From a virus: DNA of 64,000 nt. The stretch is taken from IMG/VR virus record IMGVR_UViG_3300021376_000041, positions 6,914 through 70,913 of that record. One strand, 5' to 3'. The first letter of the stretch is position 1. Every line of letters starts with the position of its first letter. Under the pieces are notes generated by a model, which saw only the letters and a program-made list of their open reading frames with translations, was not told the DNA's origin and made no database searches. Below are positions 690 through 60,070 of the stretch, piece after piece. Both the position numbers and the translations under genes were made by a program.

Positions 690-834
690 CTTCATAGATT
701 TGTTGACTACGCTTTTTTATTCATGGATAGCTTTATTTTTAGTAAGTTTATCTTTTTATATTGCTTTTACATATCCCTCCACTAAACCCGAGCCACGTTT
801 TAAAAATACTCTACAACGTGATATAAGCCCATAG
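676..834 (+). CDS. small membrane protein (not in ORF track)
   Basis: 52 aa MTKYNFIDLLTTLFYSWIALFLVSLSFYIAFTYP...; one TM segment; fills the gap between neighbouring genes. Confidence 0.6.
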   Translation: MTKYNFIDLLTTLFYSWIALFLVSLSFYIAFTYPSTKPEPRFKNTLQRDISP

Positions 835-837
835 ATT

Positions 838-1476
838 ATGCGAAAATTATTACTTTCATTGGTAGTATTGATGTTTACCGGCGTAACTCCTGCGCCTATT
901 ATGAAGCCATTAGCTTGGGAGCAACCAAACAAACCCGGGCGGCAAAAATGGAGTGAACATACATTCCAGTATATATATCGTAATTTCGATAAACTCGATA
1001 AGGCTATAGATATAAATTACTTTTGTCCCAATTATCATAACATGAACCGTGACGAACGTGTTAACGCTTGGGGACAGCTCGTAGCGTCCATAGCGTGGTT
1101 TGAGAGCGGTTGGAACCCCCGTGCCCGTATGCCGGAACCCCGTTTGGGGTTTGACCCTGTAACGGGCGATACGGTGATTGCAGAGGGGTTGCTACAATTA
1201 GGTTATAGCGATTCGATGTGGCGCGAATATTGTCGATTTGATTGGATGGGGGACCGTGCCCTTGATGCAGATGATTTGCAACGTACCATGATTAATCCGC
1301 GTACACATCTTGAGTGCGGTGTAGGCATCTTGGCAAGTCAAGTAGAACGGTATGGGCGTATAGTAATAGATACCGGTGCCTATTGGGCGGTTATCAAATT
1401 AAATCACCGTAATCAGCGGATAGATGGCATACGGCGTATGGTTATGAGACTGCCAATGTGTTTGGATGAGGAGTAA
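838..1476 (+). CDS. secreted lytic transglycosylase (SLT/lysozyme-like domain)
   Basis: N-terminal signal peptide; catalytic ES motif (FESGWNP) and GLLQL motif; markedly higher GC than flanks. Confidence 0.8.
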   Translation: MRKLLLSLVVLMFTGVTPAPIMKPLAWEQPNKPGRQKWSEHTFQYIYRNFDKLDKAIDINYFCPNYHNMNRDERVNAWGQLVASIAWFESGWNPRARMPEPRLGFDPVTGDTVIAEGLLQLGYSDSMWREYCRFDWMGDRALDADDLQRTMINPRTHLECGVGILASQVERYGRIVIDTGAYWAVIKLNHRNQRIDGIRRMVMRLPMCLDEE

Positions 1477-15536: not shown

Positions 15537-15794
15537 ATGGAAATCATTAATCAAGATATTTTAAAACCAGTAGAAAAAATTAATCCCATGAAAGAATGGC
15601 TTGTAGATTATGTCGGCAACAAACTACAACCAGCTAATAACGAAGTTACAGTAGCAATGCTAGTAGAAGCAATGGCAGAAGAATTCCCAGAATTTGTTAT
15701 GGCAGTTGCAGAAGAAAACTTTATTCGTGGTTATCAACAAGCATTCAAAGATTTAGAAGCAAATGGTGAAATAACTCCAACAAAAAATGAGTAG
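15537..15794 (+). CDS. conserved hypothetical protein
   Basis: ATG 15537 (MEIINQ...); EFPEFVMAVAEENFIRGYQQA. Confidence 0.7.
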   Translation: MEIINQDILKPVEKINPMKEWLVDYVGNKLQPANNEVTVAMLVEAMAEEFPEFVMAVAEENFIRGYQQAFKDLEANGEITPTKNE

Positions 15795-16467
15795 TGTAAA
15801 TTATATAAAAAAATCTTCTGCTAAGAATGCTGCTCAAGTAAGAGAATATAGCTTATTTGGCAGCATTCTTGTTATTGTTGCTAACCCACTTCCTGAAGAA
15901 ATTAATTTAAAAAGTGTTTTAAAACGTATAGAAAAAAATATACCAAAACATTTATTTATTAATTTAGATATCATTTATTTTGGTGATTTTAAAGAATTAA
16001 AAGCTCGACAAGTTTCTTCTGCTTATATGGACGGAGGAATATATTTAACCAATCAACAAGTATCTGATGAAGAAATATATAATTCAATTGTACATGAGTT
16101 GGCACATAGTATAGAAAAAAACTTTGAAAATGATTTATACGGAGATGATAAAGTATTAGAAGAGTTTTTAAATAAACGTAAAAAATTAAAAAGCATTTTA
16201 GAATCTAATGGTCTTTATTGTGCTGATTCTCTATATTTAAGACCAGAATTTACAAGAGATTTTGATGATTTTCTGTTTAAAAAAGTTGGCTACGATAAAT
16301 TAACATTATTAATTTCAAATCTGTTTATTTCTCCCTATTCGCCAACATCATTAAGAGAATATTTTGCTTCTGGATTTGAGTATTATTATTGCGGAGACAA
16401 TCCAGAATATATATCTCAAATATCTCCAAAGCTTTATAAAAAAATTATTTACTTGACAAAGAAGTAA
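15787..16467 (+). CDS. HEXXH zinc metallopeptidase-like protein
   Basis: IVHELAHSIE plus downstream SLREYFASGFE third-ligand motif. Confidence 0.7.
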   Translation: MSSVNYIKKSSAKNAAQVREYSLFGSILVIVANPLPEEINLKSVLKRIEKNIPKHLFINLDIIYFGDFKELKARQVSSAYMDGGIYLTNQQVSDEEIYNSIVHELAHSIEKNFENDLYGDDKVLEEFLNKRKKLKSILESNGLYCADSLYLRPEFTRDFDDFLFKKVGYDKLTLLISNLFISPYSPTSLREYFASGFEYYYCGDNPEYISQISPKLYKKIIYLTKK

Positions 16468-16504: not shown

Positions 16505-17278
16505 ATGTCTAATCATATATCTTTTTCTGCTTTAAAGCTTTGGAATGACTGCCCTTTTAAATATAAATTAACATACATTGATAATGTTCAAAAGTTTCGT
16601 GGTAGCGAATATACAATCTTTGGTACTTCGCTGCATGAAGCTTGTGAAAAAAAGCTTCTAGACAATAATATTAATGAAGTAGAATATTTTTTAAATAAGT
16701 TTGATGAAGAGCTAAAAAATATTCCTTCTGATGTTCAACTAGATCCCAATCTTTTAACTGAAATGAAAGAGCAAGGTAAGACACTTGCATCTATGGCATT
16801 GCCTGCCCTTAAAGAAAAGTTTGGTAATTTTAAAGTCTTAGCAGCAGAAGAGGACATCTTTGAAACCATTAAAAAAATTCCTGAATTGAATTATAATTTT
16901 AAAGGTTATATTGATTTAATTATTCAAACAGAAGATAATAAGATACATATCTTAGATTGGAAAACATGTGCTTGGGGTTGGGATGCTAAAAAGAAAAGTG
17001 ATCCAATGATTACTTACCAGTTAACTTTTTATAAATATTTCTATTCTCAAAAGCATAATATAGATCCAAAAAATATTGAAACATATTTTGCGCTTCTTAA
17101 GAGAACTGCTAAGAAAGACAATGTAGAAATTTTCCGCGTAACAAGCGGAGACAAAAAAACAGAAAATGCATTTAACTTATTAACAAAAGCACTTTATAGT
17201 ATTAATAAAGGTTTTTTTCCAAAGAACCGTCTTGCTTGCAAATATTGCGAGTATAATAAAACAAAGGATTGTCCCTAG
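16505..17278 (+). CDS. PD-(D/E)xK (RecB/Cas4-like) exonuclease with Fe-S cysteines
   Basis: SFS...CP, GTSLH, GYIDL, ILDWKT, QLTFY, C-terminal CKYC...CP. Confidence 0.88.
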   Translation: MSNHISFSALKLWNDCPFKYKLTYIDNVQKFRGSEYTIFGTSLHEACEKKLLDNNINEVEYFLNKFDEELKNIPSDVQLDPNLLTEMKEQGKTLASMALPALKEKFGNFKVLAAEEDIFETIKKIPELNYNFKGYIDLIIQTEDNKIHILDWKTCAWGWDAKKKSDPMITYQLTFYKYFYSQKHNIDPKNIETYFALLKRTAKKDNVEIFRVTSGDKKTENAFNLLTKALYSINKGFFPKNRLACKYCEYNKTKDCP

Positions 17279-18279
17279 TGAAAACAGCAATTATTACAGG
17301 TATTACTGGGCAAGATGGTAGCTATCTTGCAGAACTGCTTTTAGAAAAAAATTATAAAGTAGTTGGCCTTGTTCGTAGAAGTGCGATGGAAGACAAAAAG
17401 CTTTATAATATCCAACATCTTTTAAATAACTCTAATTTAATTATAGAAAATGGTGATTTAACCGATTCTCCATCTTTGTGGAGAGTTATAGGCAGTCATC
17501 AGCCCGATGAGTTTTATAATTTAGCAGCACAAAGTCATGTTGGCGCCTCCTTTACATCCCCAGAAAGTACTTTTCAAATAAATGCAACTGGCGTATTAAA
17601 TTGTTTAGAAGCGATAAGGGTACTTAAACGAAATACAAAGTTTTATCAAGCTTCTACTAGCGAAATGTTTGGCGATAATTCTAGCGCTCCTCAAGGAGAA
17701 GAAACACCCCTTTCTCCAGTTTCTCCATACGCTTGTGCAAAAGTAGCGGCACATCATTTAATAATAAATTATCGTAAAGCATATAATATATTTGCTTGCT
17801 CTGGTGTTCTTTTCAATCATGAAAGCCCAAGGCGTGGCGAACAGTTTGTTACGAGAAAGATCACAAAAGCAGCTGCCAGAATCAAGCTTGGTTTACAAAA
17901 AGAATTACGTCTTGGTAATCTTGAAGCAAAACGAGATTGGGGATATGCAAAAGAATATGTAGAAGGTATGTGGATGATGATGCAGCATCATGCGCCCGAC
18001 GATTACGTTCTAGGCACAGGAAAAACATACACTATTAAACAATTCATTGATTGCATAAGTGAAATAGCTGGTTATAATTTAATGCAATATGTTGTTATTG
18101 ATGATAAATATAAACGTCCTAGCGAGGTTCCGTTATTATTAGCTGATCCAACAAAAGCTAAAAAAGTCTTAGGCTGGGAGCCTAAAACCAATTTAAAACA
18201 ATTAGCAGAATTAATGTATAATTGTGATTTAGAAAAGGAAAAAATCTTAAAGGAGATTTTAGATGAACAAAAAAATTAA
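17278..18279 (+). CDS. gmd: GDP-mannose 4,6-dehydratase
   Basis: ITGITGQDGSYLAE, NLAAQSHV, YQASTSEMFG, SPYACAK, FNHESPRRG, RDWG; GTG start. Confidence 0.96.
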   Translation: MKTAIITGITGQDGSYLAELLLEKNYKVVGLVRRSAMEDKKLYNIQHLLNNSNLIIENGDLTDSPSLWRVIGSHQPDEFYNLAAQSHVGASFTSPESTFQINATGVLNCLEAIRVLKRNTKFYQASTSEMFGDNSSAPQGEETPLSPVSPYACAKVAAHHLIINYRKAYNIFACSGVLFNHESPRRGEQFVTRKITKAAARIKLGLQKELRLGNLEAKRDWGYAKEYVEGMWMMMQHHAPDDYVLGTGKTYTIKQFIDCISEIAGYNLMQYVVIDDKYKRPSEVPLLLADPTKAKKVLGWEPKTNLKQLAELMYNCDLEKEKILKEILDEQKN

Positions 18280-19752
18280 AATATTAACTCTTTCTGACCA
18301 TCCGTTAACCAGCCGGTAACAGCGGATATAAAACTGGGTGAATTGCTGGAAACTTTCATAAATAATTTCGCTACAGCATAGTTGGAAACGACAAGTGCAA
18401 AAGCCAAAAAGAAATTATTGAAACAATCAGCAGCCAAGTGCCTGTCTTGAAAAAGTGGCAAAGGTTCAGAGACTACGGTTAGCCTAAACATTTTATGTAT
18501 GGCAATGATCCGACAGCGCCCAGCACTTTAATAAGTGATGATATAGTCCAACAAAGTGTCACCATCTGGTGTAGGTAGTCAGTCCAACTACATCTTCCAA
18601 GGTCTGTTAAAAACAGGCAAATATCAAATTATTTCTTTAGGTGGTGCCATTAAACATCAAGACTATCGCCCTGTCAAGTTCCATGAATATGGCGATGATT
18701 TCGTGATTATCCCAGTTAATGGCTATGGAACGCCAGAATTAATTCGTACAATTTTAATGAAAGAAAAGCCTGATATCATTTGGATGATGACTGATCCAAG
18801 ATTTTATACGTGGTTATGGAATATGGAACAAGAGATTCGTCCTAATGTTCCAATTGTTTATTATCATGTGTGGGACAACTATCCATATCCTAAATTTAAT
18901 CGTGCATATTATCAATCGAATGACATGATAGCTACGATTTCTAAACTTACAAGCGATATTGTTAGGACAGTAGCACCAGAAGTCGAAGAACGTTATGTGC
19001 CACATGCGGTAAATCCAGATTTATTTAAGATTTTAGATGAAAAAGAATATGCACATTTACGTAATCCAAATAAAACACTTTTCTTCTGGACTAACAGAAA
19101 TGCCAGACGTAAAATGAGCGGCAGCGTTGTATGGTGGTATAAAGAATTTCTTGATAAAGTTGGACACGATAAAGCATTTTTGCTAATGCATACAGATCCT
19201 AAAGATCCTCATGGACAAGATCTTGTAGCAATTGCAGAAGAATTAGGCTTGACTAAAGAAAATTTTGCAATTTCTGCTGGTAAAGTTTCACAAGCGGAAA
19301 TGACTAAATTTTATAATGCTGCCGATTGTACAATAAACATCAGCGATGCAGAAGGCTTTGGTTTGTCATGTTTAGAAAGTCTTTCTTGCGGTACTCCTGT
19401 TATAGCTAATAAAACTGGTGGAATGCAAGATCAATTAACAGATGGTGTAGATACATATGGTGTTCTTATAGAACCTGCTAGTCGTGCAGTTATTGGCTCT
19501 CAAGAGGTACCATATATCTATGAAGATCGTGTTAGTAACAAAGATGTAGTTGAAGCGATGATTAAAATTCATAATATGTCACGCGAAGAACGTAAAGCGC
19601 TTGGTCGTAAGGGACATGACAATGTGCAAAAGAATTTTAATTTTGCAACTTTCCAAGAAACTTGGGATAAACTATTAACAGAAGTTCACGAAAAATGCGG
19701 TTCTTGGGAAACACGTAAAAATTATAAATCCCTAAGCGTAAAGGAATACTAA
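18263..19752 (+). CDS. GT4-family glycosyltransferase, intron-split: join(18263..18305,18557..19752), 412 aa
   Basis: AGGAG RBS; splicing restores KIKILTLSDHP-L-SPSGVG; NRNARRK and EGFGLSCLESLSCGTPVI GT4 motifs. Confidence 0.9.
18306..18556 (+). ncRNA. group I self-splicing intron (IA-like), 251 nt, no homing endonuclease ORF
   Basis: P1 AUCCGU/GCGGAU with U18305.G18322; core elements AATTGCTGGAAA, AATCAGCAG, TTCAGAGACTA, GATATAGTC; P3 CTGGGTG/CGCCCAG; P10 GGTAACA/TGTCACC; terminal G18556. Confidence 0.93.
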
Positions 19753-59095: not shown

Positions 59096-60070
59096 ATGCC
59101 AACATATAATAAAATTTGTGAAGCTTGTAAAAAAGATTTTATTGCGGGCAGAAAAGACAAACAATTTTGCTCTGTTGGCTGCATAAAGAAGGAACTTTAC
59201 AAGAAAATTGAACCAAAAAAGCTTATATGCATCTTTTGTAATGCGGAATTCTTCTCAAAAAAACAATCTTCCAAATATTGTTCAAAAACTTGTATTAACA
59301 AGGGCGCTAAATCACATCCCGATGTGCAATTAATATGCAAAGAATGCAATAATCCATTCAATGTTAAATATGTTCATCGCGATAAGCTATTTTGTTCAAG
59401 AAGCTGTGCTACTACACATCAAAATAGAAAGATGTTTGCTGACGATATAGTAAAAACCAAAATTTCAGAAACAAAGAAAGCGCAATATGCATCTGGTGAA
59501 ATCCTGCATCCATTTTCTGGAAGGGCTCACACGGAAGAAACAAAGAAAAAGATATCAAAAATACGTATTGACAATGATCTTTCAAAGGGCGCTAACAATC
59601 CTATGTATGGAAAAAGCCATAGTGAAGAAACAAAACAAAAAATTTCTAATACAAGAATTAAAAAAATTATGAATGGAGATTATTCTCAATGGTTTAAAAA
59701 AGGTACTTTATTTAGTATTAAGCTAAGAAGAGAAATAACGTTTAGAAGCTCTTGGGAGGAAATAGCTTATAAGTTTTTAGAAACTTGTAAAGATGTAAAA
59801 GAATACTCTCCAGAACCCTTTAGTATACCATATAAATATTTTTCAGCAAGAAGGTTATATTTACCAGATATTTTAATTACTTATTATGATGGACGACAAA
59901 AACTAATAGAAATTAAACCAATATCTTTAATAACTGCCGATATTAACCAATCTAAGTTCAAAGCCGCTCGACAATATTGTGAAGAAAAAGGCATCATATT
60001 TGAAGTATGGTCAGAGCAAAAAATAGAAGAATTAAAAAAGTTGCTTGATTTAGAATGCGCTACTATTTAG
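59096..60070 (+). mobile_element. free-standing putative homing endonuclease (CxxC repeats + NUMOD3 + TnsA-like PD-(D/E)xK nuclease)
   Basis: three CxxC..FCS..C repeats; HTEETKKKIS and NPMYGKSHSEETKQKIS (NUMOD3); FRSSWE, EPF.IPY, YLPD, IEIKP; AGGAGG RBS. Confidence 0.85.

Follow-up and report, generated by a model that had tools for sequence, protein, structure and literature searches.

In the 64,000-nucleotide stretch of DNA from an uncultured lake phage analyzed here (the window), a glycosyltransferase gene on the plus strand is interrupted by a 251-nt group I intron (18306-18556) in codon 15, 43 bases past the gene start. The window corresponds to positions 6914-70913 of the IMG/VR record IMGVR_UViG_3300021376_000041, a viral sequence of 70.9 kb estimated to be 36% complete. 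Exon 1 (18263-18305) comprises an ATG and 13 further codons (MNKKIKILTLSDHP) plus the first base of a leucine codon, so that the 5' splice site lies after U18305. A Shine-Dalgarno-like AAGGAG (18250-18255, plus strand) stands before it with a 7-nt spacer to the ATG at 18263, and the 3' end of a GDP-mannose 4,6-dehydratase gene (17269-18279, plus strand; Pfam PF16363, 408 bits) overlaps the exon start. Exon 2 (18557-19752, plus strand) supplies the final two bases of the leucine codon, 397 codons that form the body of the glycosyltransferase, and the stop. By the Pfam matches of this body (PF00534 [Glycos_transf_1], 55 bits versus a cut-off of 26.4; PF13692, 47.9 bits; PF20706, 34.2 bits), the predicted product of the host gene is a GT-B glycosyltransferase of the GT4 type.

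If the intron is left in place, the exon 1 frame runs on through L-T-S-R and meets a TAA at 18317-18319. Joining 18263-18305 to 18557-19752 instead gives CCG T|TG TCA CCA (P-L-S-P) and a product of 412 amino acids (aa). Two joins moved by one or two bases yield the identical protein, but only the removal of 18306-18556 gives both the U.G pair at the 5' splice site and a terminal G. The intron holds no plus-strand open reading frame (ORF) of at least 30 aa. An alternative ORF of 398 aa (genetic code table 11) begins at a GTG at 18556, before which there is no Shine-Dalgarno-like motif.

The relatives of the protein show where the gene begins. When the 398-aa frame was used as the query, 7979 of 8000 candidates scored were relatives at an E value of ≤0.001, and the best 120 of these 7979 share 62-93% identity with it, exon 2 being up to 93% identical to intron-less homologs. 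Among these best 120 homologs, 118 are 409-415 aa long and carry an uninterrupted N-terminus of the form M..KK(I/L)K(I/V)L..SDHP.S.SGVG, with SDHP(L/F/K/R)S(P/x)SGVG at the junction, and the spliced N-terminus of the window gene (MNKKIKILTLSDHPLSPSGVG) agrees with them residue for residue. The remaining two (381 and 387 aa) begin about 30 residues further in and may be truncated gene calls. In the ten closest viral loci (71-90% identity), the gene is uninterrupted in all ten and no Rfam match was found in any.

These comparisons bear directly on a first-pass annotation of the stretch, made from the letters alone, which had proposed that a group I intron conceals the true N-terminus of a 412-aa GT4-type enzyme. 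The proposal is borne out by the 118 of 120 homologs that are contiguous through the junction rather than beginning at SPSGVG. The boundaries of the intron, the stop in the exon 1 frame, the wobble pair in P1, the helices P3, P4, P7 and P8, and the P10 with six of seven bases paired were likewise all found as it had described them.

Structure of the intron RNA

The intron was identified by its match to the Rfam group I model RF00028, which spans 18267-18569 on the plus strand, covers model positions 1-253 of 253, and at 76 bits (gathering score, 50) lies well beyond what chance would give (E value of 1.6e-17 for the whole window and 1.8e-19 for a 701-nt stretch). A covariance-model check of this kind, suggested together with the first-pass annotation, thus agrees with it. 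No other Rfam match passes the threshold in either the window or the full 70.9-kb record. No riboswitch or second RNA family was found in or beside the intron when the window and the 701-nt stretch were scanned, although such a blank is weak evidence because the default Rfam scan overlooked three clear members (L067, L080, and L087) of the 12 complete glycosyltransferase introns.

A structural alignment of 17 unique intron copies, the window included, was then read helix by helix. The P1 hairpin (18300-18327) pairs AUCCGU of the exon (18300-18305) with the guide GCGGAU (18322-18327) and places the wobble U18305.G18322 at the splice site. Across the family (helix 1), 97.5% of cells are paired, six of seven pairs are invariant, and the U.G wobble occurs in all 17 copies. 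For P10, the segment GGUAACA (18315-18321) faces UGUCACC at the start of exon 2 (18557-18563) with six of seven bases paired. Its five splice-site-proximal pairs (helix 2) are 94.1% paired in the family, three of the five with changes on both sides, and the guide covaries with the exon through the types UGAGC/GCUCA, UAAGC/GCUUA, and UAUCA/UAAUA.

The catalytic core follows the same pattern. The two strands of P3, CUGGGUG (18334-18340) and CGCCCAG (18517-18523), were placed by alignment and covariation; the helix (helix 3) is paired in 100% of cells, and three of its seven pairs are compensatory. P4 (18344-18349/18427-18432) encloses P5 (18354-18358/18419-18423) in the segment 18344-18432. P5 bears an extension with a GAAA-capped hairpin, and P5 and the extension covary (helices 5-8). 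P6, P6a, and P6b (18433-18465), with a GAAA loop on P6b, are 98.5-100% paired (helices 9-11; 7 of 10 pairs compensatory). GACUA (18471-18475) pairs with UAGUC (18544-18548) to form P7, presumed to be the guanosine-binding helix, which fits the Rfam consensus and makes the P3/P7 pseudoknot. Between P7 and the 3' strand of P3 lies a P7.1-like hairpin (18476-18512; helices 13-14, 7 of 12 pairs compensatory), which is also present in the fold of the single sequence, and P8 (18524-18537; CACUU UAAU AAGUG) is 81.2% paired with three of five pairs compensatory (helix 15). The intron ends with the 3' strand of P7 and an 8-nt tail (CAACAAAG) that runs to the terminal omega-G (18544-18556 together); relatives have a P9 hairpin here and the window has none. 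There is no P2. The conserved core of P3, P4, P6, P7, and P8 with the P3/P7 pseudoknot is therefore present in full.

The pairing scheme was assessed in several ways. The minimum-free-energy fold of the window intron alone recovered P1, P3, P4, P5 together with its extension, P6, the P7.1-like hairpin, and P8, with a z-score of -2.41 and 2 of 200 shuffled sequences folding equally well. RNAalifold, applied to the 17 copies, returned 57 pairs, 30 of them with compensatory changes. A hand-written set of 73 pairs (P1, P10, P3, P4, P5 with its extension, P6/6a/6b, P7, the P7.1-like hairpin, and P8) has standard pairs in 95.7% of cells, compared with 29.4-39.9% when the partners are slid by one to three columns. 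In this set, 36 of the 73 pairs vary on both sides, and the observed score was reached by none of 500 shuffles. We conclude that 18306-18556 is a genuine group I intron with these boundaries.

Passages of an earlier paper (PMC3984707) place P9 within the catalytic domain. Here, P9 was treated as a peripheral element of the P3-P9 domain and not as a condition of membership. The window copy is one of five of the 17 (with L082, L088, L072, and L075) that lack the hairpin, the terminal G following P7 after no more than 8-10 nt. In others, this tail extends up to about 38 nt and carries GAAA-capped P9 hairpins. In the Michel-Westhof classification, subgroup IA introns are marked by one or more extra hairpins (P7.1/P7.2) between P7 and the 3' strand of P3. 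The single covarying hairpin at 18476-18512 stands in the position typical of subgroup IA by this rule, which makes the window intron a candidate member of the subgroup.

Introns and nucleases at the same site in related viruses

Related introns were sought with two sequence patterns. A 16-base pattern from the 3' region of P7 gave 46 viral loci, in four of which a homologous gene contains a match to the window intron over most of its length. A P1-hairpin pattern gave 27 viral loci, of which 21 hold a related intron in the same codon of a homologous gene, with an exon 1 that ends in ...SDHP|. All 20 of the related loci that contain exon 2 have an intron of 249-287 nt with a terminal G and a join reading L(S/C)xSGV(G/A), and the host genes are 37-82% identical to that of the window over the first 130-230 residues. 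The six other loci found with the P1 pattern are not in a glycosyltransferase gene, and none reaches the Rfam threshold. Four of these (L069, L071, L076, and L083) were rejected as family members; they have none of four core motifs and are probably chance matches, about eight of which would be expected by a rough count. The remaining two, L079 and L089 (from about 900), share the P1 hairpin sequence, with another downstream core and in other genes, and may represent another intron type with the same guide sequence. In L089, an HNH/EndoVII-like frame lies directly upstream.

The nearest intron-bearing relative of the window is L082, with a glycosyltransferase identity of 82% and an intron identity of 84%. 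A protein designated P0021 is intron-less and yet identical to the intron-bearing L082 over 195 residues, and the closest protein neighbors of the window in the tree are intron-less as well; therefore, gain or precise loss of the intron has been recent in the clade of the window. In a distant clade, all members sampled carry the intron. The intron-bearing genes appear to be kept under constraint. In all 11 pairs tested, dN/dS was 0.08-0.23, or pN/pS was 0.15-0.28 where dS was saturated (window versus L082, pN/pS of 0.15; window versus L072, dN/dS of 0.17). Pairwise intron identity also correlated with glycosyltransferase identity (r = 0.67; none of 2000 permutations as high), and from these two results the introns have diverged alongside genes under purifying selection. 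Introns that do not splice would be hard to reconcile with this co-divergence and selection.

A nuclease gene commonly accompanies the intron. In 19 of the 21 intron-bearing relatives, a free-standing nuclease gene of Vsr/NUMOD3 type, or a remnant of one, lies directly upstream of the glycosyltransferase gene, between it and the dehydratase gene or a PD-(D/E)XK nuclease gene (the latter in L063, L070, L084, and L088). The frame is long (268-301 codons) in 12 of the 21 loci, split in two in one (L087), and reduced to the last 51-83 residues of the C-terminus in six (L063, L074, L070, L082, L084, and L088), the remnant in L082 measuring 80 codons and separating exon 1 from the dehydratase gene. 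In one further locus (L064), an HNH/EndoVII-like frame stands there instead (PHROG "endonuclease VII," phrog_1035; E value of 9e-10), and in another (L066), the upstream region is cut by the contig end. The long frames contain Cys-rich repeats and a NUMOD3 motif (27.9 bits versus a cut-off of 20.4), match the PHROG "homing endonuclease" family phrog_3339 (E value of 5e-9) as well as PHROG "endonuclease" families, and have a C-terminal domain that resembles DUF559 and REase_MTES_1575 (Vsr-like fold), both below the Pfam cut-offs.

Nuclease genes also occur at intron-less loci. Eight of the ten intron-less loci have no nuclease frame at the junction of the dehydratase and glycosyltransferase genes. 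The other two, L003 (1837-2475) and L010 (1829-2452), contain an HNH-type frame of 207-212 aa between the two genes, the 3' end of which overlaps the glycosyltransferase start, and the codons at the insertion site deviate from the usual ones in both. The N-terminal Cys-rich module of these frames is that of the Vsr-like frames, and it appears from the sequences that one DNA-binding module has been combined with two nuclease domains.

Elsewhere in the window, among the structural genes, a 324-aa ORF (59096-60070, plus strand) has a NUMOD3 match of 56 bits and a TnsA-like endonuclease N-terminal domain of 55 bits. The N-terminal part of this ORF is 23% identical (E value of 1e-5) to the upstream nuclease frames of the relatives, and by these matches it is probably another free-standing homing endonuclease.

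Origin of the intron and alternative explanations

The arrangement in the relatives resembles collaborative homing, which has been described for the psbA intron of phage S-PM2 and the free-standing endonuclease F-CphI (Zeng, Bonocora and Shub 2009; passages of PMC6083498 and PMC3984707); a second phage system of this type also appears in those passages. As in S-PM2, relatives of the window have a free-standing endonuclease gene directly adjoining the interrupted gene, and the catalytic type of F-CphI (HNH/EndoVII-like) is found in L064 and in the intron-less L003 and L010. Unlike in S-PM2, the host gene encodes a glycosyltransferase, the commonest partner is a Vsr-like/NUMOD3 protein rather than an EndoVII-motif protein, the window has no partner nuclease at all, and the system is known from sequence alone.

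The element itself can be set beside the subgroup IA introns in protein genes of phages, namely T4 td, nrdB, and nrdD, the SPO1 DNA polymerase gene, and Twort (passages of PMC3706429). With these it shares the RF00028 core, the U.G pair of P1, the omega-G, and the P7.1-like hairpin (a tentative sign of the subgroup by the rule given above), as well as an insertion in a highly conserved stretch of codons and a sporadic distribution among close relatives. It differs from them in having no ORF, P2, or P9 and in its large P5 extension with a GAAA loop. The nearest introns of cultured phages in blastn searches were those of Vibrio phage 1.232.O (after the major capsid gene), the Lactococcus phage AM1 group (tape-measure gene), phiKZ-like phages, and Synechococcus phage S-SRM01 (psbA region). 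All of these matches are partial and concern host genes other than the glycosyltransferase gene. They cover the P3-P6 half (34-51% of the query) at 70-75% identity, except that of S-SRM01, which is 92% over 39 nt (P3'-P8-P7') and has a partial D1 gene on one side and a "homing endonuclease" gene on the other.

We consider it very probable that the intron is an orphan in codon 15 of a phage GT-B gene, that is, the nuclease-free remnant of a collaborative-homing element. Within a transcript of the glycan cluster, the intron would adopt its structure of P1 plus the P3-P8 core. As in standard group I chemistry, attack by an exogenous guanosine nucleotide would take place behind U18305, and the freed 3'-OH of exon 1 would then attack behind G18556 with P10 as the guide. 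Translation of the ligated message (...CAU CCG UUG UCA CCA...), starting at the ATG at 18263 that follows the Shine-Dalgarno-like motif, would give the 412-aa enzyme. At the level of DNA, alleles without the intron would be cleaved by the free-standing nuclease where they encode the conserved DHP-L-SPSGVG, a target that the intron splits in its own genome and would thereby protect, and repair would copy the intron, often along with the nuclease gene, into the recipient. In the lineage of the window, the nuclease gene would have been lost without trace and P9 lost as well. The intron thus orphaned would still have to splice if the enzyme is to be produced, and it may still protect the gene from the nucleases of co-infecting relatives. 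The recurrence of homing-endonuclease genes upstream in the relatives points to a selfish-element origin. Across the relatives and the window, the nuclease gene is found full, frameshifted, as a remnant, or (in the window) absent, and the window reads as a late, nuclease-free stage of collaborative homing, i.e., a derivative rather than a complete unit.

Several observations weigh against this interpretation. No RNA is among the sequencing runs listed for the stretch, and we infer splicing from the DNA. P4 and P7, although 100% paired, are invariant in the 17 copies, so covariation is uninformative for them and they are backed by sequence conservation alone. The window copy lacks the P9 hairpin, has one mismatch in P10, and has a C.A apposition at the seventh P1 pair (18299/18328), which is C-G in 14 of 17 copies. 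There is no nuclease gene or remnant at the glycosyltransferase gene of the window, and tblastn with four nuclease proteins matched the window only at 59225-59893; hence, the homing origin rests on the relatives. The nuclease domains of those relatives score below the Pfam cut-offs (34.1 versus 38.2 and 19.7 versus 20.6), and the specificity assigned to the enzymes is presumptive. Nuclease and intron are not strictly linked either, since the intron-less L003 and L010 carry a nuclease gene. The tree of intron state contains three changes but is biased in its sampling (intron-bearing rows came from the intron pattern and intron-less rows were the best 120 protein hits), and we drew no conclusion about gain versus loss from it. 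Finally, sliding identity between the window and L082 or the intron-less L002-L005 revealed no clear co-conversion tract.

Some of these points would suit a decayed, splicing-dead intron, with the glycosyltransferase reduced to a pseudogene or to a truncated product from an internal start. The missing P9 with 8 nt between P7 and the omega-G, the C.A mismatch that closes P1, the P10 mismatch, and the lack of RNA among the runs are all compatible with such decay, and loss of the partner nuclease suits a late stage of the homing cycle. We nevertheless regard it as improbable. Both exons are intact, with an exon 2 that has stayed close to intron-less homologs, and the intron retains every column that is invariant across the 17 copies. 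L082, L088, L072, and L075, which belong to different glycosyltransferase lineages, are P9-less as well, and the intron-bearing genes are under strong purifying selection. An internal start at GTG 18556 would have no ribosome-binding motif, and its product would miss the segment that 118 of 120 homologs retain. The same GTG is the basis of the suggestion that there is no intron at all and that a 14-codon upstream ORF and a spacer precede a shorter glycosyltransferase. The 398-aa ORF indeed exists; however, given the Rfam E value, the covariation over 17 copies, the covariation of P10 with exon 2, and the fact that exons 1 and 2 form a single frame in the homologs, we attach next to no probability to this suggestion.

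The first-pass annotation had further supposed that splicing might gate a GDP-sugar pathway, with the need for guanosine coupling glycosyltransferase output to the guanine-nucleotide or GDP-sugar pool. The gene does lie in a GDP-sugar cluster and adjoins the GDP-mannose 4,6-dehydratase gene, and regulated splicing of a phage intron has been mentioned for psbA (in passages of PMC8557907). The guanosine nucleophile, however, is required in group I splicing and belongs to its ordinary mechanism (passages of PMC3984707). The Rfam scans showed no ligand-sensing or other regulatory element, close relatives with the same cluster are intron-less (10 of 10 loci; 118 of 120 proteins), and members of the family also lie beside the PD-(D/E)XK nuclease gene rather than the dehydratase gene (L063, L070, L084, and L088). 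Group I introns work at cofactor concentrations far below that of cellular GTP. The distribution of the intron tracks homing-endonuclease genes, as expected of a selfish element, and a regulatory role is to our minds very improbable, more so than decay.

Beyond the orphan-intron interpretation, a broader history can be offered more tentatively, as a possibility that we would put somewhat below even chances. The 5' end of the glycosyltransferase gene may be a long-lived arena of selfish elements in which Vsr-like and HNH/EndoVII-like nucleases with a shared Cys-rich/NUMOD DNA-binding module alternate in one intergenic slot, the intron serving as a portable immunity patch by splitting the target common to both and the window representing an immunized allele free of nuclease genes at that slot.

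Genomic setting and significance

The split gene belongs to a glycan-biosynthesis cluster that extends from 17269 to about 28908 on the plus strand of the window, with several intervening ORFs without a family. Besides the dehydratase gene and the split GT4-type gene, the cluster encodes a 647-aa GT4+GT2 fusion, a GT47/RXYLT1-like protein, an FkbM methyltransferase, two epimerases/dehydratases, and a UDP-glucose/GDP-mannose dehydrogenase. The window also codes for baseplate-wedge and tape-measure-like proteins, PhoH, and a PD-(D/E)XK nuclease. Upstream of the cluster, a 226-aa ORF (15787-16467, plus strand) weakly matches PF07737 (lethal-factor-type metallopeptidase domain; 28.3 bits versus a cut-off of 27.4) and also peptidase M90; with its HELAH motif, it is probably a zinc metallopeptidase.

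Many lake-water metagenome runs contain DNA identical or nearly identical to the stretch, and lake-water runs independent of one another yielded contigs with the intron-containing form (X10 record 1 covers the entire stretch with 1 difference; X12 record 13 covers 18006-18636 with 0 differences). In the contigs of four DNA runs, no joint skipping 18306-18556 was found, i.e., no intron-less allele at a likeness of at least 88%, although contigs cannot prove its absence. Among the cultured phages in the collection, megablast of the gene region gave 0 matches and tblastn of the glycosyltransferase gave nine records with a top identity of 32%, so that the collection holds no close cultured phage. 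The glycosyltransferase of Microcystis phage Mel-JY01 (L058, 1453-2944) was considered as another intron-split gene and rejected, its two coding sequences lying 10 nt apart through a frameshift or stop. As in the window, a PD-(D/E)XK nuclease gene lies upstream of it.

Other group I introns were encountered in the loci collected. L046, a viral contig, carries two in tandem on the minus strand (about 584-876 and 923-1213; 80 and 66 bits), about 50 nt apart and upstream of a structural-looking ORF. In L015, a transfer-messenger RNA gene (tmRNA; 779-1185, minus strand; RF00023, 52 bits) overlaps the end of a group I intron match.

The hosts of phage group I introns listed in passages of PMC12350094 and PMC3706429 are nucleotide-synthesis, DNA-metabolism, lysis, capsid, tail, and psbA genes. 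The first-pass annotation had called a glycan-biosynthesis host unusual, and our full-text literature search retrieved no report of a phage glycosyltransferase gene interrupted by a group I intron; the qualification is that the same site recurs in 21 further metagenomic viral contigs. The host is unusual, and through it a glycan-biosynthesis gene joins the genes that carry phage group I introns, while the type of element and its likely mechanism of mobility are already known. There is also a practical consequence for annotation. Gene callers report a 398-aa protein from the spurious GTG, or a shorter one, and miss the conserved N-terminal segment; catalogues of phage glycan genes will therefore undercount or truncate this enzyme.

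The most interesting aspects are the P9-less form of the intron and the preserved stages of the homing cycle. The P9-less copies provide a natural test of how far phage group I ribozymes require the 3' domain, and the natural intermediates found in the relatives and the window make collaborative homing, and the persistence of an intron after loss of its nuclease, directly testable. Should the 5' end of the gene prove to be a long-lived arena of such elements, the P2-less, P9-less intron of 251 nt would be a naturally minimized and still active phage group I ribozyme, and the system would be the third natural case of collaborative homing and the first in a glycan gene, with all stages of the homing cycle preserved in environmental genomes.

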